A stretch of 64,000 nt of DNA, from UHGV virus genome UHGV-0171999; one strand, written 5' to 3'. Of this stretch, positions 12,607 through 49,322 are shown one piece after another. The notes below the pieces were generated by a model, which saw only the letters and a program-made list of their open reading frames with translations, was not told where the DNA came from and made no database searches. Origin of the DNA: a virus. The stretch's first letter is position 1, and every line of letters starts with the position of its first letter. The position numbers were made by a program, and so were the translations under genes.

Positions 12607-12679
12607 TGGGAATTAGCCAAGTTGGTAAGGCACTGGATTTTGATTCCAGGATGCAAAGGTTCGAGTCCTTTATTCCCAG
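12607..12679 (+). tRNA. tRNA-Gln (anticodon UUG)
   Basis: Cloverleaf by eye: acceptor tgggaat/attccca, anticodon loop ttTTGat, T-loop TTCGAGT. Confidence 0.8.
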
Positions 12680-12680
12680 C

Positions 12681-12767
12681 GCGAGAATGGTCAAATTGGT
12701 AAAGGCACAGCACTTAAAATGCTGCGGAATGATTTCCTTGTGGGTTCGAGTCCCACTTCTCGCACCA
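12681..12767 (+). tRNA. tRNA-Leu (anticodon UAA), long variable arm, CCA encoded
   Basis: Acceptor gcgagaa/ttctcgc, anticodon loop ctTAAaa, T-loop TTCGAGT, ends ACCA. Confidence 0.8.
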
Positions 12768-12772
12768 AATTT

Positions 12773-12846
<74 letters not shown>

Positions 12847-12856
12847 ATTTAATTTA

Positions 12857-12931
12857 CTCCGTGTAGCTCAATGGCAGAGCGATCGCCTGTTAAGCGATTG
12901 GTTATAGGTTCGAATCCTATCACGTCCGCCA
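12857..12931 (+). tRNA. tRNA-like element, anticodon GUU (Asn), three mismatches at the acceptor-stem end; possible pseudo-tRNA
   Basis: D-arm GCTC/GAGC, anticodon stem atcgc/gcgat with loop ctGTTaa, T-arm atagg-TTCGAAT-cctat, 3' GCCA; 5' ctccgtg pairs with 3' cacgtcc at only 4 of 7 positions. Confidence 0.4.
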
Positions 12932-12935
12932 AATC

Positions 12936-13011
12936 CGAGGCATAGCTCAGAAGGAAGAGCAAGGACCTTCTAAGTCCTAGGTCGTAGGTTCGATCCCTAC
13001 TGCCTCGACCA
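12936..13011 (+). tRNA. tRNA-Arg (anticodon UCU), CCA encoded
   Basis: Acceptor cgaggca/tgcctcg, anticodon loop ctTCTaa, T-loop TTCGATC, ends ACCA. Confidence 0.8.
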
Positions 13012-35964: not shown

Positions 35965-36411
35965 ATGATTACAGTAGATAAGTGGTTTAGAATTAATCGT
36001 GCTGATACAGGGCTGTGTAATTACTGGCCGGAACTTAGTGCAGGTACTGTCTTTAAAGTTCGTGAACTTGTAAAAGAATGTGAAGATGATATAGAACCTG
36101 ATACTGGAATTATTGAAATTGAACTTTCTGATGGAAAGATTATTAACATCTACGATAAGCCAATTACGTATTGGTGCTTATGGAATACTGAATCAGTAGA
36201 AAATGGCGAAATTGAAGAAGTTGTAGAACGAACTAGTCAAGATGTTCAAATACCTAAAGCCGCTTTTCAAGGTGAACGTATTTCATATGCATTAGCTAAA
36301 GTGTCATTAAAAAAGGATATTGATGATTATGAAGGAAATTTAATGCAAGCCGCGGCAGAATATATTGAATGGCTTGAAACTCAAATTTCTTTTTCTGACC
36401 GAGCGTTTTAA
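35965..36411 (+). CDS. hypothetical protein
   Basis: ORF 35947-36411 (TTG in track), first ATG at 35965. Confidence 0.45.
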   Translation: MITVDKWFRINRADTGLCNYWPELSAGTVFKVRELVKECEDDIEPDTGIIEIELSDGKIINIYDKPITYWCLWNTESVENGEIEEVVERTSQDVQIPKAAFQGERISYALAKVSLKKDIDDYEGNLMQAAAEYIEWLETQISFSDRAF

Positions 36412-36425
36412 TACTTGAAATAATA

Positions 36426-36456
36426 AATACCCTTATCTATTCAAGGTAAGGGTTTT
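36426..36456 (+). promoter_or_regulatory. RNA hairpin immediately upstream of gene 49
   Basis: 9-bp stem acccttatc/ggtaagggt with 7-nt loop, followed by a U-rich tract and the gene 49 start. Confidence 0.4.
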
Positions 36457-36459
36457 ATT

Positions 36460-36933
36460 ATGTTATTGACTGGCAAATTATACAAAGAAGAAAAACAAAA
36501 ATTTTATGATGCACAAAACGGTAAATGCTTAATTTGCCAACGGGAACTAAATCCTGATGTTCAAGCTAATCACCTTGACCATGACCATGAATTAAATGGA
36601 CCGAAAGCTGGAAAGGTGCGTGGATTGCTTTGTAATCTGTGTAATGCTGCGGAAGGTCAAATGAAGCATAAATTTAATCGTTCTGGCTTAAAGGGACAAG
36701 GTGTTGATTATCTTGAATGGCTAGAAAATTTACTTGCTTATTTAAAATCCGATTACACCCAAAATAATATTCACCCTAACTTTGTTGGAGATAAATCAAA
36801 GGAATTTTCTCGTTTAGGAAAAGAGGAAATGATGGCTGAGATGCTTCAAAGAGGATTTGAATATAATGAATCTGACACTAAAACACAATTAATAGCTTCA
36901 TTTAAGAAGCAGCTTAGAAAGAGTTTAAAATGA
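36460..36933 (+). CDS. 49: endonuclease VII (Holliday junction resolvase)
   Basis: 157-aa ORF MLLTGKLYKEEKQKFYDAQNGKCLICQREL...; zinc motif; matches recalled T4 gp49. Confidence 0.9.
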   Translation: MLLTGKLYKEEKQKFYDAQNGKCLICQRELNPDVQANHLDHDHELNGPKAGKVRGLLCNLCNAAEGQMKHKFNRSGLKGQGVDYLEWLENLLAYLKSDYTQNNIHPNFVGDKSKEFSRLGKEEMMAEMLQRGFEYNESDTKTQLIASFKKQLRKSLK

Positions 36934-38747
36934 CAATTGAAAAAGAAATTGAAGGATTGATTCATAAAACTAATAAAGACCTTTTAAACGAGAATGCTAA
37001 TAAAGATTCTCGTGTTTTTCCAACTCAACGGGACCTTATGGCTGGTATTGTGTCTAAACACATTGCCAAAAATATGGTCCCGTCTTTTATTATGAAAGCG
37101 CATGAAAGCGGAATTATCCATTTCCATGATATTGATTATTCCCCTGCTCTTCCATTTACTAATTGCTGTTTAGTAGATTTAAAAGGAATGCTTGAGAACG
37201 GGTTTAAGCTCGGTAATGCACAGATTGAAACTCCTAAATCAATCGGCGTTGCTACTGCAATTATGGCACAAATTACTGCACAGGTTGCTTCCCATCAATA
37301 CGGTGGAACGACTTTTGCGAATGTAGATAAAGTACTTTCTCCTTATGTTAAACGCACCTATGCAAAACATATTGAGGATGCAGAAAAATGGCAAATCGCT
37401 GATGCGTTGAATTATGCCCAATCTAAAACAGAAAAAGACGTATACGATGCATTCCAAGCTTATGAATATGAAGTAAATACTCTCTTTAGTTCAAACGGAC
37501 AGACTCCTTTTGTAACAATTACATTTGGTACGGGAACTGACTGGACTGAACGAATGATTCAGAAAGCAATTCTGAAAAATCGCATTAAAGGTCTCGGTCG
37601 TGATGGGATAACTCCTATTTTTCCTAAGCTCGTTATGTTCGTTGAAGAAGGTGTTAATCTTTATAAAGACGATCCGAACTATGATATTAAGCAGCTTGCT
37701 CTAGAGTGTGCAAGCAAAAGAATGTATCCTGATATTATTTCAGCTAAGAACAATAAAGCTATCACCGGCTCATCTATTCCTGTTTCTCCAATGGGTTGTC
37801 GTAGTTTCTTGAGCGTATGGAAAGATTCGACTGGTAATGAAATTCTTGATGGACGTAATAATCTTGGTGTTGTAACACTGAATCTTCCTCGTATTGCGTT
37901 AGATTCTTATATTGGAACACAATTCAATGAACAGAAATTTGTTGAGCTATTTAATGAACGAATGGATCTGTGTTTTGAAGCATTGATGTGCAGAATTAGT
38001 TCCTTAAAAGGAGTTAAAGCGACTGTTGCTCCTATTCTTTACCAAGAAGGTGCATTCGGGGTTCGTCTTAAACCTGATGACGACATAATTGAGTTATTTA
38101 AAAACGGTAGAAGTTCAGTGTCCCTAGGATACATTGGTATTCACGAATTGAATATTCTTGTCGGTCGTGATATTGGACAGGAAATTTTAACTAAAATGAA
38201 TGCTCGTCTTAAGCAGTGGACTGAAAGAACCGGTTTTGCTTTTAGCTTGTATTCTACTCCTGCTGAAAACCTTTGTTATCGCTTCTGTAAACTTGATACT
38301 GAAAAATATGGAAGCGTAAAAGATGTTACTGATAAAGGTTGGTACACTAATAGTTTCCATGTTTCAGTAGAAGAAAATATTACTCCGTTTGAAAAGATTT
38401 CTCGCGAAGCCCCATATCATTTCATTGCAACAGGTGGTCACATTTCTTATGTTGAACTTCCTGATATGAAAAATAACTTAAAAGGTCTTGAGGCTGTATG
38501 GGATTATGCTGCACAACATTTAGATTATTTTGGCGTTAACATGCCAGTAGATAAATGTTTTACATGCGGAAGCACCCATGAAATGACTCCAACCGAGAAC
38601 GGATTTGTTTGTTCTATTTGTGGAGAAACTGATCCTAAAAAGATGAATACCATAAGAAGAACATGCGGATATCTTGGAACTCCTAGCGTTGTTCCATGGA
38701 ATTTAGGTAAAATGAAAGAAATGGTAAAACGAGTAAAACATGCATAG
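36930..38747 (+). CDS. nrdD: anaerobic ribonucleotide reductase large subunit NrdD
   Basis: 605-aa uninterrupted ORF; C-terminal glycyl-radical and zinc region CFTCGSTHE...RRTCGYLG. Confidence 0.92.
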   Translation: MTIEKEIEGLIHKTNKDLLNENANKDSRVFPTQRDLMAGIVSKHIAKNMVPSFIMKAHESGIIHFHDIDYSPALPFTNCCLVDLKGMLENGFKLGNAQIETPKSIGVATAIMAQITAQVASHQYGGTTFANVDKVLSPYVKRTYAKHIEDAEKWQIADALNYAQSKTEKDVYDAFQAYEYEVNTLFSSNGQTPFVTITFGTGTDWTERMIQKAILKNRIKGLGRDGITPIFPKLVMFVEEGVNLYKDDPNYDIKQLALECASKRMYPDIISAKNNKAITGSSIPVSPMGCRSFLSVWKDSTGNEILDGRNNLGVVTLNLPRIALDSYIGTQFNEQKFVELFNERMDLCFEALMCRISSLKGVKATVAPILYQEGAFGVRLKPDDDIIELFKNGRSSVSLGYIGIHELNILVGRDIGQEILTKMNARLKQWTERTGFAFSLYSTPAENLCYRFCKLDTEKYGSVKDVTDKGWYTNSFHVSVEENITPFEKISREAPYHFIATGGHISYVELPDMKNNLKGLEAVWDYAAQHLDYFGVNMPVDKCFTCGSTHEMTPTENGFVCSICGETDPKKMNTIRRTCGYLGTPSVVPWNLGKMKEMVKRVKHA

Positions 38748-39570
38748 GTATTATATAATTTATAAAATAACAAATATAATTAATTCAAAGGAATATATCG
38801 GTGCGCATAGCACCGATAACATAAATGATGGTTATATGGGGTCAGGAACATTGATTCGTGCCGCTTTATTAAAATATGGTAGAAAAAATTTTAATAAAGA
38901 AATTTTACATGTTTTTGATAATGAAAAACAAATGTATGATAAAGAAGCTGAACTTGTAACCGAAGAGTATTGTCTAAAAGAAAATACATATAATATTAAA
39001 CCCGGTGGAAAAGGTGGAACTGCGTATGAACAGACACTTGAACATCGCCGCAAAAATAGTTTAGCAAATAAAGGTAAAAAGAGAACAGAAGAAACTAAAA
39101 TAGCTATTTCACGTGCTTTAAAGAAATATAAACGTACGCCAGAGCATCAAGCAAATTTAAATAAAGCCGTAAGCATAGCTATGAAGCGAAAAGATGTTAG
39201 AAGTAAATTAGCTGGAGAGCGGTCTGAGAAAGATAAATTATCTATATCAAACGGTGTTAAAAAATATTACAATTCTTTGAGTGAAGAAGAACGCGAACTT
39301 CATCGCAAGCGAATTATTGAAGGTAAAAAGAATTCTCCCATGTCATTGGAATCTAGACAAAAGCTTTCAAAAGCTTTAAAAGGACTTCAAGTTGGTTCAA
39401 AAAATCCAATGTATGGAAAAATTTCTCCAACTAGCAAAACCGTTTCAGTTGACGGTATTAAATATGATTCAATTAAAAAGTGCTCAAATGCAATAAAAGT
39501 TTCTAGACATCTTATACTAAAACGCTGTAATTCTACTGATGAAGCTTGGAAAAATTGGATATTATTATGA
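38740..39570 (+). CDS. free-standing GIY-YIG homing endonuclease (Seg-like)
   Basis: N-terminal YIIYKITN...EYIGAHS GIY-YIG module; C-terminal basic repeats resembling NUMOD3-type DNA-binding motifs; overlaps nrdD stop and nrdG start. Confidence 0.8.
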   Translation: MHRYYIIYKITNIINSKEYIGAHSTDNINDGYMGSGTLIRAALLKYGRKNFNKEILHVFDNEKQMYDKEAELVTEEYCLKENTYNIKPGGKGGTAYEQTLEHRRKNSLANKGKKRTEETKIAISRALKKYKRTPEHQANLNKAVSIAMKRKDVRSKLAGERSEKDKLSISNGVKKYYNSLSEEERELHRKRIIEGKKNSPMSLESRQKLSKALKGLQVGSKNPMYGKISPTSKTVSVDGIKYDSIKKCSNAIKVSRHLILKRCNSTDEAWKNWILL

Positions 39571-40037
39571 ATTATGATAGATTTTATCCCTGCGATTTTG
39601 TGAATGGCCCTGGATGCAGGGTTGTTCTTTTCGTTACGGGGTGTTTGCATAAATGCGAAGGGTGTTATAATAAATCAACGTGGAATGCTAGAAATGGCGT
39701 TCCATTCACTGGTGAAACACTAGAACAATTAATTGAATGTTTGAATAATGATTATATAGAAGGATTAACTATAACCGGAGGTGACCCTCTTTATCCTGAT
39801 AACAGAGACGTGATTCACTCTGTGGTTCAAACTATTAAAAATCTTTATCCAAATAAAAGCATTTGGTTGTGGACAGGATATAAGTTTGAAGATATTAAAC
39901 AACTAGAAATGCTTAAATATGTTGATGTTATTATTGATGGGAAGTATGAGAAAAATCTTCCGACCAAAAAGCTGTGGCGAGGATCAGATAATCAGCGACT
40001 TTGGTCAAATACCGATGGGGTGTGGAAACATGATTAA
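39567..40037 (+). CDS. nrdG: anaerobic ribonucleotide reductase activating enzyme NrdG
   Basis: MNYDRFYPCDFVNGPGCRVVLFVTGCLHKCEGC radical-SAM cysteine motif; start at Met 39567 within ORF 39546-40037. Confidence 0.85.
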   Translation: MNYDRFYPCDFVNGPGCRVVLFVTGCLHKCEGCYNKSTWNARNGVPFTGETLEQLIECLNNDYIEGLTITGGDPLYPDNRDVIHSVVQTIKNLYPNKSIWLWTGYKFEDIKQLEMLKYVDVIIDGKYEKNLPTKKLWRGSDNQRLWSNTDGVWKHD

Positions 40038-40127
40038 ATTGAATTATATTATGGACACTATAAATGATATGATTTTTCATTTTGGTCCAGAATTTTATTC
40101 GCAATATAGTTTAGTGCTTATCAATGC

Positions 40128-40364
40128 TTGGTTAATCAATTAAGGGTAAATATGTATAAATTTCGTAAAGGTTTAGCTGATTTTCTTACAACCGTAACAT
40201 TCTTTTTGTTTATGGCAGTTGGAGCTATTTTCCTTATTCCTTTTATTGCTATATTTTTCGTGATTAGTTTGATTTCTCCAGAAAAAGGACTATCTTCTAG
40301 TGAGTTCAATGAGCGTCTGGATAAAATTACTAACAAGCTGAATGCTGCTCTTAGTAAGGAATAG
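40128..40364 (+). CDS. small membrane protein
   Basis: 78-aa ORF with a hydrophobic helix. Confidence 0.4.
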   Translation: MVNQLRVNMYKFRKGLADFLTTVTFFLFMAVGAIFLIPFIAIFFVISLISPEKGLSSSEFNERLDKITNKLNAALSKE

Positions 40365-40366
40365 TT

Positions 40367-40675
40367 GTGAAACAAAACAAGATTGAAGTCTATGGAATTC
40401 CAGATGAAGTAGGTCGTTGTCCTGGATGTCAATCAGTTACAAAACTTCTAAAGGAGCTCAATGCTCCTTTTACTTTCTATAAAGTTCTTACAAATAATGG
40501 TAAGATTGAGTATGATCGTCCACTGATTGTATCTCTTGCTAAACGAGCTGGATTCACATCTCTTAACATTCGTTATCCAGTCATTTTCATTAATGATTCT
40601 AGACAAAAGAACATTAAACACTTCAAAGAAACTCTCATTTCACTTGGATATGATAGAGATATCATAGAAGACTAA
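40367..40675 (+). CDS. nrdH: glutaredoxin-like protein NrdH (apparent GTG start)
   Basis: CPGC redox motif; position after nrdG. Confidence 0.65.
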   Translation: MKQNKIEVYGIPDEVGRCPGCQSVTKLLKELNAPFTFYKVLTNNGKIEYDRPLIVSLAKRAGFTSLNIRYPVIFINDSRQKNIKHFKETLISLGYDRDIIED

Positions 40676-46928: not shown

Positions 46929-48613
46929 AGAATTTTAAACTTAATAGAGTAAAATATAAAAATATAATGTCAGTTGGTCAAAATGGGATTGACATTCAAT
47001 TAGATAAGGTTCAAAAAACTCTTATTACTGGACGAAATGGCGGTGGTAAGTCTACTATGTTAGAAGCCATCACATTCGGGCTTTTTGGCAAGCCATTCCG
47101 TGATGTAAAGAAAGGTCAATTAATAAACAGCACAAATAAGAAAGAACTTTTAGTTGAACTGTGGATGGAATATGATGAGAAAAAGTACTATATCAAAAGA
47201 GGACAAAAACCAAATGTTTTCGAAATCACCGTTAACGGTACACGTCTTAATGAATCTGCCAGCAGTAAAGATTTCCAAGCAGAATTTGAACAGCTTATCG
47301 GAATGTCATATGCCAGTTTCAAACAGATCGTCGTACTCGGCACGGCTGGATATACCCCTTTTATGGGCCTATCCACTCCTGCAAGAAGAAAGCTTGTCGA
47401 AGACCTGCTCGAGGTAGGAACATTAGCTGAAATGGATAAGCTTAATAAAGCACTAATACGTGAATTAAATTCACAGAACCAAGTGCTTGATGTTAAAAAA
47501 GATAGTATTATCCAACAAATTAAAATATATAATGATAACGTTGAACGCCAGAAAAAATTAACTGGTGATAACCTTACTCGTCTACAGAATATGTATGATG
47601 ATTTGGCAAAAGAAGCCAGAACGTTAAAATCGGAAATAGAAGAAGCTAATGAAAGATTAGTTAATATTGTTTTGGATGAAGACCCGACTGATGCATTTAA
47701 TAAAATCGGTCAAGAAGCATTTTTAATTAAATCAAAAATTGACTCGTATAATAAAGTCATTAATATGTATCACGAAGGTGGATTATGTCCAACCTGTTTG
47801 TCACAATTAAGTTCCGGCGATAAAGTTGTTTCTAAAATTAAAGATAAAGTTTCTGAATGCACGCATTCGTTTGAACAGCTTTCAACACATCGTGATAATT
47901 TAAAAGTTCTTGTTGATGAATACCGAGATAATATTAAAACCCAGCAGACGTTGGCGAATGATATTCGCAATAAAAAGCAATCTCTAATCACGACGGTAGA
48001 TAAAGCTAAAAAAGTTAAAGCAGCTATAGAAAAGGCATCATCTGAGTTTATTGACCATGCTGATGAAATAGCACTGCTTCAAGAAGAACTTGATAAAATT
48101 GTTAAGACAAAAACTAATTTAGTAATGGAAAAATACCACAGAGGAATTTTGACTGACATGCTCAAAGATTCTGGTATTAAAGGTGCTATTATTAAAAAGT
48201 ACATTCCATTATTTAATAAGCAGATTAACCATTATCTTAAAATAATGGAAGCGGATTATGTGTTTACATTAGATGAAGAATTTAATGAGACAATTAAATC
48301 CCGTGGTCGTGAAGATTTTAGTTATGCTTCATTTAGTCAAGGTGAAAAAGCACGAATTGATATTGCTCTTTTATTTACTTGGCGTGATATTGCTGAAAAA
48401 GTTTCAGGTGTTAAAATAAGTTGTTTATTTCTTGATGAAGTGTATGACGGTGCATTTGATGCTGAAGGTATTAAAAATGTGGCTAAAATTTTAGATGGTT
48501 TGAAGAATACCAACTTCTTCATAATTTCGCATAAAGACCATGACCCACAGGAATATGGTCAGCACATTCAAATGGAAAAAGTTGGTAGATTTAGTTTAGC
48601 TAAGATTAGTTAG
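46925..48613 (+). CDS. 46: recombination exonuclease subunit gp46 (Rad50/SbcC-like ATPase), apparent GTG start
   Basis: 562-aa ORF; Walker A GRNGGGKST, central coiled coil with CPTC zinc hook, C-terminal Walker B LFLDEVYDG. Confidence 0.92.
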   Translation: MKNFKLNRVKYKNIMSVGQNGIDIQLDKVQKTLITGRNGGGKSTMLEAITFGLFGKPFRDVKKGQLINSTNKKELLVELWMEYDEKKYYIKRGQKPNVFEITVNGTRLNESASSKDFQAEFEQLIGMSYASFKQIVVLGTAGYTPFMGLSTPARRKLVEDLLEVGTLAEMDKLNKALIRELNSQNQVLDVKKDSIIQQIKIYNDNVERQKKLTGDNLTRLQNMYDDLAKEARTLKSEIEEANERLVNIVLDEDPTDAFNKIGQEAFLIKSKIDSYNKVINMYHEGGLCPTCLSQLSSGDKVVSKIKDKVSECTHSFEQLSTHRDNLKVLVDEYRDNIKTQQTLANDIRNKKQSLITTVDKAKKVKAAIEKASSEFIDHADEIALLQEELDKIVKTKTNLVMEKYHRGILTDMLKDSGIKGAIIKKYIPLFNKQINHYLKIMEADYVFTLDEEFNETIKSRGREDFSYASFSQGEKARIDIALLFTWRDIAEKVSGVKISCLFLDEVYDGAFDAEGIKNVAKILDGLKNTNFFIISHKDHDPQEYGQHIQMEKVGRFSLAKIS

Positions 48614-49322
48614 GTTTATATTTACAATTATCATTATGCCATCTTGATAAATTTCCGAAAGTGGTAACTTTACCACAATGGACGCAAGTACCAGTCTTTT
48701 CAGTTTTCTTGCGTCCATTTGGATTTTTCTTGCAGAAATTTCTATGCGCTGCGATAACGCATTTCTTGCCTATCATTCCGCAGAATTCGCAGGATGTTTC
48801 TTCAAGAACGATTGCTTTAAGCCCGTTTGAGATATTATTTCTGTGTTCTTTAGACATTGGCGGTCTAACTTTAGGATTGGGGTGATTTGGGCAGTTATCA
48901 AAATGCCATCGATTCATATTCCCGCTTAATCCAGACTTACCGCAATGTGGACAAGTTAGTCTTGCTTTATTAGCTACTGCATCGGACATTTTCTTTCGTG
49001 TCTCTTGGGAGAACTCTTTATTCTTTTCTATTTCCCAGAGTTTACGACGAATCCAGCCGAAAGTTTTATTGTTGCGTTTAGCGTATTTCGTAGAAACTGT
49101 CATCATGTTAGCAGCATAGACTAATTTTGGTTCAGAAGGATAAATTTTTACTAAAAGTTGATGAGCTACATAGTGCTCTTCTGGTGTTAAATCTACTAAG
49201 TTTGAAGCATCATCGCTACCATTTAAACAGCGTGGTATAATGTGATGAGATTCAGTATAGCAATCAAGTTTTCGAGATTTAGCATTAGAGATTAACTTTT
49301 CGTAAATTAGTTTATAATTCAT
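48606..49322 (-). CDS. HNH homing endonuclease (Mob-like), antisense to neighbouring genes
   Basis: HNH motif ESHHIIPRCLNGSDDASNLVDLTPEEHYVAH; three C-terminal CxxCG...RWHxDNC zinc-finger-like repeats; overlaps gene 46 stop by 8 nt. Confidence 0.8.
   Translation of the reverse strand: MNYKLIYEKLISNAKSRKLDCYTESHHIIPRCLNGSDDASNLVDLTPEEHYVAHQLLVKIYPSEPKLVYAANMMTVSTKYAKRNNKTFGWIRRKLWEIEKNKEFSQETRKKMSDAVANKARLTCPHCGKSGLSGNMNRWHFDNCPNHPNPKVRPPMSKEHRNNISNGLKAIVLEETSCEFCGMIGKKCVIAAHRNFCKKNPNGRKKTEKTGTCVHCGKVTTFGNLSRWHNDNCKYKPN

Follow-up and report, generated by a model that had tools for sequence, protein, structure and literature searches.

Organisation of the locus

The window analysed here, 64,000 nucleotides of the virus genome UHGV-0171999, bears an open reading frame (ORF) of 276 codons lodged between nrdD and nrdG. 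The genes at the locus, and the motif close to the nrdD terminus to which we return below, are as follows:

36930..38747, + strand: nrdD, anaerobic ribonucleotide reductase large subunit, 605 codons, intronless (ORF list)
38655..38678, + strand: codons of nrdD for the glycyl-radical motif RRTCGYLG (codon-by-codon comparison with T2; tails of other T4-like phages)
38740..39570, + strand: segH, free-standing GIY-YIG homing endonuclease gene, 276 aa, ATG start (ORF list)
39567..40037, + strand: nrdG, activase, 156 aa, ATG start at 39567

The original prediction, made from the letters alone, had this 276-codon frame at 38740-39570 begin 8 nt ahead of the nrdD stop and end in an ATGA shared with nrdG, and both the ORF list and the raw sequence bear it out. 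At the nrdD/segH junction, which reads AAACATGCATAGG, the segH ATG (38740) stands 5 nt ahead of the nrdD TAG (38745-38747), an overlap of 8 nt including the stop; at the segH/nrdG junction, which reads TTATGAATT, the segH TGA (39568-39570) is interlocked with the nrdG ATG (39567). The flanking genes were identified through Pfam matches to NRDD (7.5e-172) and Gly_radical (7e-25) for nrdD, and to Fer4_12 (4.5e-49) for nrdG. The inserted gene is a promoterless cassette overlapping both of its neighbours: searches near segH for a dedicated promoter, a T4 late promoter, a promoter-like site and TATAAATA found none of these, and no operator-like feature was found at the gene.

The gene so placed is segH, known from T4-like phages as a selfish, free-standing GIY-YIG homing endonuclease gene. 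Its product is identical at 276 of 276 residues to SegH of phage RB3 (ABI48949.1, GenBank AY262138) and at 271 of 276 (98%) to SegH of T6; since the protein is 100% identical to one already named and deposited, the frame is not a chance ORF. The GenBank entries AY262137 (T6), AY262138 (RB3) and AY262139 (LZ2) annotate segH between nrdD and nrdG. The gene was named by Sandegren, Nord & Sjöberg (2005, Nucleic Acids Res 33:6203), and passages of a review and of a preprint citing that work place segH at nrdD/nrdG in place of mobC. The gene has borne its name and been on deposit since the mid-2000s, and dozens of genomes carry the annotation; it is therefore already known and not new, and the window is of little weight as a discovery. 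It serves instead as a positive control, in which both the nature of the gene, a free-standing GIY-YIG homing endonuclease, and its biology were correctly inferred from raw sequence, although the name segH, the existence of at least four states of the junction, and the irrelevance of segH to the absence of an nrdD intron were all missed.

Domain architecture of SegH

Three regions were assigned to the protein:

38740..39018, + strand: GIY-YIG catalytic domain, aa 1-93 (IIY8, Y19-I-G21, E69, N85)
39031..39435, + strand: helical linker with NUMOD3-type repeats, aa ~98-232 (Pfam NUMOD3; helices in the model)
39415..39558, + strand: C-terminal I-TevI-like DNA-binding (helix-turn-helix) domain, aa 226-273 (Pfam, Foldseek)

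The GIY-YIG module had been read from the letters YIIYKITN...EYIGAHS, and these are indeed present. In the AlphaFold model residues 1-90 have pLDDT values of 95-98, and ranks 1-3 of the Foldseek search went to 1MK0 and 1LN0, the I-TevI catalytic domain, with probability 1.00 and TM scores (target) of 0.60-0.64. The motif pair consists of I-I-Y8 and Y19-I-G21, in which Y8, Y19 and G21 are invariant across 39 homologues, as are E69 and N85. Profile alignment to 1MK0 places N85 on N90 of I-TevI, and E69 no more than one residue from E75. There is no invariant arginine matching R27 of I-TevI, the R27 region falling in an unaligned insertion; position 40 is R in SegH and K or R in 28 of the 39 sequences, and K45 is present in 36 of them. 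When the SegH sequence was searched singly against PDB sequences only noise was returned, while with the family profile 1MK0 and 1LN0 were the only matches.

The C-terminal NUMOD3-type repeats claimed in the original prediction are likewise upheld by profile searches: Pfam NUMOD3 matches aa 200-228 with 33.8 bits against a cut-off of 20.4 (3.1e-8). The repeats read TLEHRRKNSLANKGKK and SLESRQKLSKALKG. The Pfam I-TevI_DNA-bd model gives 21.1 bits (3e-4), below its cut-off of 27, and Foldseek pairs the C-terminus with the DNA-bound structure of the I-TevI DNA-binding domain, 1I3J (probability 0.87). PHROG 314 ('homing endonuclease') matches SegH at 2.4e-60. The general GIY-YIG model PF01541 gave no match to SegH and SegE_GIY-YIG scored 18.6 bits, below its cut-off of 25; PF01541 or PF19835 is found on many homologues.

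The description of the protein as seg-like also stood up in comparison with the T4 paralogues. By BLAST, SegH is 32% identical to SegD over the full length (1e-34), 45% to SegE and 46% to SegA in the catalytic domain, and 30% to SegF. On the basis of predicted fold, conserved residues and these paralogue comparisons, SegH belongs to the Seg/I-TevI GIY-YIG family.

The nrdD intron site

The T4 nrdD gene carries an intron of 1033 nt, and the original prediction had set against it an uninterrupted nrdD of 605 codons in the window. The ORF list agrees with this, and so does alignment to the spliced T4 nrdD, with which the window gene is colinear. The corresponding site is:

37428..37507, + strand: empty equivalent of the T4 nrdD intron site, with the point of insertion at 37467/37468 (aligned against T4T, T2 and T6)

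The empty site matches phage T2 at every one of the 74 nt 37428-37501, with two differing positions beyond (to 37507); from the T4 exon junction it differs at eight positions, one upstream of the insertion point and seven within 20 nt downstream of it. An Rfam search for group I introns over 36400..40400 at E<=1 returned no match, while the T4 nrdD intron, as a positive control in the same search, scored 105 bits. There is accordingly no intron RNA around segH, and the claim that the endonuclease is free-standing holds. Phages fPS-2, RPN226 and EC128 carry the nrdD intron and segH together, so the two elements are independent of one another, and the missing intron in the window is unrelated to segH.

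Alternative states of the nrdD/nrdG junction

The IMG/VR viral contigs contained no close segH copy (the best was 54% identical, in the catalytic domain only), and the junction was for this reason surveyed in the GenBank phage collection, in which about 725 junctions were compared. The nrdD/nrdG junction has at least four states: it is empty in some 590 cases, and holds segH in 71, mobC in 32, and a third, KK4-type endonuclease gene in a further 32. The original prediction had reasoned that the same ORF at the T4 junction would mark it as an ordinary conserved gene; T4 in fact holds mobC there, an unrelated HNH gene, and Pfam finds no HNH domain in the segH ORF. Across most of the phage records that carry it, segH is 98.6-99.5% identical, whereas the surrounding 2.1 kb reaches at best 97.4%. 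That copies of the gene are more alike than their flanks indicates that segH has spread recently. The nearest relatives of SegH (47-48% identity) likewise come immediately after nrdD, on large phage contigs that are unrelated.

Recoded tracts flanking segH

Next to segH the end of nrdD is itself unusual:

38676..38747, + strand: recoded nrdD 3' end, last 23 codons, GTPSVVPWNLGKMKEMVKRVKHA* (comparison with T2)

This tail differs from T2 at 29 of 72 nt, with 11 codons nonsynonymous, against 4.0% divergence elsewhere in nrdD. On its left the divergent tract linked to segH has a sharp edge, which coincides with the 3' end of the glycyl-radical motif codons. The recoded tail was found in 81 phage records, all of them either segH carriers or members of one lineage of mobC hybrids, and was absent from the 23 T4-like loci in IMG/VR with a readable NrdD tail. 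The combination of the segH-type tail with mobC is recurrent.

On the nrdG side the tract linked to segH varies in length. The first ~45 nt of nrdG in the window have the T2-like, unrecoded form, MNYDRFYPCDFVNG, while RB3, T6, KIT06 and most other segH phages have the variant MNYDRIYPCCFVNG; the right junction of the window is common to only about ten records (the Pu-Krd-SF series, moha, C2-3 and TH58).

Two further ideas on origins were rejected. Derivation of the recoded nrdD tail from the L056 and L059 lineages, which hold the nearest SegH relatives, fails on the tails found there, which differ (GAVDRPMNAGKQKEIIHRVKHN). The word ATGCATAGG, common to the start of SegH and the end of T2/T4 nrdD, was considered as a vestige of insertion, but a shared word of at least 9 arises in 12.7% of shuffles. 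The same word is the joint used by the mobC hybrid.

A tentative reading, which we regard as a minority prospect, is that nrdD/nrdG is a contested site at which segH, mobC and KK4-type genes replace one another, each accompanied by a recoded flank that it or a rival targets. The 23-codon NrdD tail might then be a protective patch borne by segH and immediately following the glycyl-radical motif; the nrdG 5' variant of RB3/T6 type might be the footprint of a KK4-type cassette; and the window might be a minority recombinant with the segH patch and an unprotected nrdG 5' end. The primary SegH paper may already describe part of this. Examples of how a conserved operon is moulded by selfish endonuclease genes are the recoded tail of nrdD, the junction in its four states, the mobC hybrid and a deleted segH remnant (see below).

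Proposed mechanism and alternative explanations

Alongside the observed gene identity, domain architecture, free-standing state, patchy distribution and linked short flanking tracts, segH is almost certainly a free-standing homing endonuclease gene of T-even-type phages (Tequatrovirus), and is proposed to operate in the following way. The gene lacks a promoter and starts within the final codons of nrdD; SegH would therefore be made, probably at a low level, by translational coupling to nrdD. In a cell co-infected by a relative that lacks segH, the NUMOD3/helix-turn-helix C-terminus would bind near the nrdD-nrdG junction and the N-terminal GIY-YIG domain would introduce a double-strand break there. 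On the empty allele this break is expected to fall in the final ~75 nt of nrdD or among the opening ~45 nt of nrdG. The phage recombination machinery would then mend the break using the segH-carrying genome as source, so that the recipient would acquire copies of segH and of short flanking DNA, a process of intronless homing or localised marker exclusion, as the original prediction had anticipated. Mobility is suggested by the presence of segH at 71 of about 725 junctions, by its conservation relative to the flanks, by the sharp divergent tract at the nrdD 3' end and the variable length of the tract on the nrdG side, by the deleted remnant in PD112, and by the position of the nearest relatives behind nrdD. 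The SegH paper is said to report that the enzyme cleaves site-specifically near its own gene and homes in mixed infections. The recoded nrdD tail may lower cleavage of the carrier genome; a role for it as a patch conferring full immunity would be weakened, as SegH reportedly also cuts the DNA of phages that carry segH.

Homing endonuclease genes are expected to decay after fixation, and segH might on this account be an inactive or decaying relic, merely carried and no longer homing. Decayed copies do occur: that of phage PD112 is a remnant with a 588-bp internal deletion, and that of phage sutha measures 835 nt against 831, with two endonuclease genes annotated in it. In the window, however, the ORF is intact and its protein identical to RB3 SegH, all hallmark catalytic residues are retained, and the greater likeness of the copies than of their flanks across most carriers is a sign of recent spread, all of which makes a relic very improbable here. 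An origin inside a terminal group I intron of nrdD is less credible still, to the point of being negligible. The best NCBIfam match to SegH is TIGR01453, 'group I intron endonuclease', although at 3.3e-13 and 50.2 bits it falls below the cut-off of 56.05, and the same label is used in some database records (KAW3E185); but complete nrdD and nrdG ORFs abut segH, and the Rfam search, with its T4 control, refutes such an origin.

Somewhat less remote, though still improbable, is the idea that SegH has been co-opted mainly for the benefit of the phage, by excluding rival nrdD/nrdG alleles, regulating nrdG, or promoting recombination or amplification, with selfish spread a by-product. It is in keeping with this that the ATGA overlap now couples nrdG translation to segH rather than to nrdD. 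A 2026 paper reports that SegB favours the amplification of anti-defence loci in T6, and I-TevI acts also as a transcriptional autorepressor. Yet the roughly 590 related phage records with an empty junction mean that segH is not needed for nrdD/nrdG function, and the searches near segH yielded neither promoter nor operator-like feature. Selfish homing is the reading that we retain.

Comparison with known systems

Intronless homing has reportedly been described for SegF by Belle et al. in 2002 and for SegG by Liu et al. in 2003. The T4 enzymes SegA-SegG share family and architecture with SegH but differ in insertion sites and targets, and T4 is without SegH; the T4 seg genes are likewise promoterless or overlapping cassettes between conserved genes, according to a review. 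I-TevI, the td intron endonuclease, has the same two-part plan as SegH, a GIY-YIG catalytic domain joined by a linker to a C-terminal DNA-binding domain, but it is intron-encoded and only ~23-26% identical; unlike I-TevI, SegH has NUMOD3 repeats in a longer helical linker, with no zinc finger detected and no invariant equivalent of R27. I-TevII, from the group I intron of T4 nrdD, is a GIY-YIG enzyme like SegH and targets nrdD, though the similarity is weak (30% identity, E 3e-5); it is intron-encoded, its insertion point lies 1.27 kb upstream of the segH site, and it is absent from the window. MobC of T4, which has an HNH domain, is unrelated to SegH (BLAST E 4.3). Both MobC and the KK4-type endonuclease nevertheless share the nrdD/nrdG junction with SegH, each also accompanied by altered ends of the flanking genes; their genes sit inside the first nrdG codons, duplicating the nrdG N-terminus, whereas segH sits at the nrdD end. 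Closest of all are the SegH loci of RB3, T6 and LZ2: gene, junction, overlaps with nrdD and nrdG, and recoded nrdD tail are all the same as in the window, from which RB3 and T6 differ in the first ~45 nt of nrdG.

The nrdD–nrdG junction

The gene studied here, segH, occupies the junction between two genes of anaerobic ribonucleotide reduction, as follows.

Upstream of nrdD, segH and nrdG: endonuclease VII (gene 49), by Pfam
36930..38747, + strand: nrdD, 605 codons; Pfam NRDD (7.5e-172) and Gly_radical
38740..39570, + strand: segH, 276 codons with an ATG start (ORF list)
ATG at 39567: nrdG; Pfam Fer4_12 and Radical_SAM

The ORF list and the raw sequence both bear out the original prediction of a reading frame at this place. 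Its ATG lies within the final codons of nrdD, giving an overlap of 8 nt that includes the TAG stop, and its TGA overlaps the nrdG start at 39567 as ATGA; both overlaps had been predicted and are confirmed in the raw sequence. nrdD is intronless, as was also claimed: its alignment to the T4 gene after splicing is colinear, the 1033-nt T4 intron would fall between 37467 and 37468, and an Rfam search that returns Intron_gpI at 105 bits for the T4 locus finds no group I intron in 36400..40400. The same search rules out a group I intron around segH, which is thus free-standing.

The empty intron site in nrdD (37428..37507, + strand) matches T2 exactly over 37428-37501, and in the 20 nt that follow the insertion point seven positions depart from the T4 exon junction. 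Crossed with T4, this phage is thus a predicted recipient of the I-TevII intron. Within the 5' part of nrdG there is a terminator-like hairpin and T-run (39602..39637, + strand), at a place where the fPS-2 record annotates a terminator; T2 has the identical sequence, so the hairpin is unrelated to segH.

Identity, domains and fold

The window derives from a T4-like coliphage (Tequatrovirus), with KIT06, sutha and phage 132 as its best overall relatives (~96-97% identity) and no identical phage record among the relatives matched. The segH ORF alone matched 73 phage records, with nucleotide identities of 97-99.5% in almost every case. Three of them are short GenBank entries, AY262137 (T6), AY262138 (RB3) and AY262139 (LZ2), whose annotation of the gene between nrdD and nrdG reads 'segH: SegH, homing endonuclease'. 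The protein is identical to RB3 SegH (276/276 residues) and nearly so to that of T6 (271/276). The ORF is therefore the already known SegH, and as an element it is not novel.

Curated profiles were only partly convincing. Pfam placed NUMOD3 above cut-off, in agreement with the C-terminal motifs originally described, with I-TevI_DNA-bd and SegE_GIY-YIG both below cut-off and no match to the general GIY-YIG model; TIGR01453 fell slightly under its cut-off, and PHROG 314 'homing endonuclease' matched at 2.4e-60. Homologues were therefore gathered (602 at E<=1e-3, many with PF01541 or PF19835) and 39 of them aligned. Residues Y8, Y19, G21, E69 and N85 are invariant across the alignment; the counterpart of I-TevI R27 is not. 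Searched against PDB sequences, the family profile matched the I-TevI catalytic domain and nothing else, and the AlphaFold model (pLDDT 95-98 over residues 1-90) retrieved the same domain at Foldseek ranks 1-3 (prob 1.00, TM 0.60-0.64), followed at rank 4 by the I-TevI DNA-binding domain. The predicted fold, the invariant residues and the comparison with T4 paralogues put the protein in the Seg/I-TevI GIY-YIG family. The original observation and its interpretation were both correct.

Occupants of the junction and recoded flanks

Phage records fall into the following junction states.

Empty: about 590 records
segH: 71 records, plus phage vB_vPM_PD112 with an internally deleted remnant
mobC: 32 records
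KK4-type gene: 32 records (KK4 and 31 others)

In T2, whose junction is empty, the nrdG start overlaps the nrdD stop as ATGA. In segH phages the change from such a junction goes beyond a plain insertion, since the final 23 nrdD codons are recoded (reading GTPSVVPWNLGKMKEMVKRVKHA up to the stop, versus the usual GNPNERGFNLGKNKEIMHRVKHQ). Here 29 of 72 nt are changed, 11 codons nonsynonymously, against 4.0% divergence in the remaining 1746 nt of nrdD, and the divergence begins immediately 3' of the glycyl-radical motif RRTCGYLG. The usual tail is kept in all 23 IMG/VR T4-like loci with a readable tail, from several genera; the recoded one occurs in 81 records, comprising the segH carriers and one hybrid mobC lineage. 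RB3, T6, KIT06 and most segH phages also have a variant nrdG 5' end (MNYDRIYPCCFVNG); that of the window is T2-like, an arrangement common to only ~10 records.

In the hybrid lineage (215Ecol030PP, SHFML-11, BCPEco_001 and BEU50; loci L054, L061, L062 and L063) the segH-type nrdD tail leads into 12 nt left over from a T4-type nrdD end, and mobC comes next. The joint at ATGCATAGG is the same in all four, as if mobC had replaced segH once and the allele had then spread. In vB_vPM_PD112 (L055 1201..1443) the segH remnant has a 588-bp internal deletion flanked by short AT-rich repeats (TTAAAATATG and TTAAATATG). Both altered flanks, the recoded tail of nrdD and the variant 5' end of nrdG, are retained, so this is a decaying copy.

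The third endonuclease gene at this junction (L004 719..1558 in phage KK4) encodes 279 aa, belongs to PHROG 655 and has a NUMOD-like C-terminus. Its 5' end duplicates the T2-like nrdG N-terminus, and T4 mobC likewise opens MNYDRIY. The nrdG variant 3' of it is that of RB3/T6-type segH phages, and most carriers have a second matching place elsewhere in the genome.

Elsewhere in the window, a MobC-like HNH endonuclease ORF of 238 aa (48606..49322, - strand; phmmer against T4 MobC, 7e-20) is flanked by gene 46 and 45.2/rpbA, both encoded on the other strand. T4 lacks this ORF; of the 504 phage records that matched, 60 carry it (N2 and PhiZZ30, for instance) and annotate it as an HNH or homing endonuclease. 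Just four genes, for tRNAs Gln, Leu, Gly and Arg, make up the tRNA cluster (12607..13011, + strand); T4 has eight tRNAs, with segB among them. A second SegH-like GIY-YIG ORF was looked for across the window, and none was detected.

Mobility and proposed mechanism

Identity among segH copies reaches 99.5%, compared with no more than 97.4% for the 2.1 kb around the gene, as would be expected if segH had recently spread laterally. The nrdD intron occurs in 25 records, and three of these phages (fPS-2, RPN226 and EC128) carry segH too, so the two elements are independent. In unrelated large phage contigs, the nearest non-identical SegH relatives (47-48% identity) directly follow a 705-aa nrdD; this endonuclease lineage thus keeps consistently to the 3' end of nrdD. 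In two such contigs (L056 3949..4000 and L059 364..416) the spacer between nrdD and the endonuclease gene has a GC-rich hairpin (GCGCC...GGCGC) over a GAGG ribosome-binding site, possibly a translational control element.

Classical intronless homing is the best-supported account of segH. SegH would be expressed at a low level through coupling to nrdD: the review of T4 mobile elements describes overlapping starts as typical of free-standing T4 endonucleases, and neither a promoter-like site nor a late promoter was found around the gene. The C-terminal module would bind close to the junction of a segH-less genome, the GIY-YIG domain would introduce a double-strand break, and recombinational repair would copy segH and short flanks into the recipient. 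Because the tract common to all carriers extends only ~72 nt to the left and 0-45 nt to the right, we infer that the empty allele is cut either in the final ~75 nt of nrdD or in the first ~45 nt of nrdG. The recoded nrdD tail may lower cleavage of the carrier genome. The primary SegH paper reportedly describes cutting near the enzyme's own locus and homing in mixed infections, and is also said to describe cleavage of DNA from segH-carrying phages, which sits uneasily with a protective tail.

Comparison with T4 endonucleases

What is known of SegH is modestly extended by the recoded tail, the junction states and the alleles of hybrid and remnant type, some of which may already be in print. The review of T4 mobile elements places mobC (HNH) at the nrdG/nrdD site of T4, and a later preprint states that some T4 relatives have the GIY-YIG gene segH in its place. 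The T4 record T4T has mobC there and the I-TevII intron in nrdD; as predicted, the ORF is not found at the T4 junction. Among T4 proteins, SegH shares 32% identity with SegD over its full length, 45-46% with SegA and SegE in the catalytic domain, and ~30% with SegF and I-TevII, whereas MobC is unrelated.
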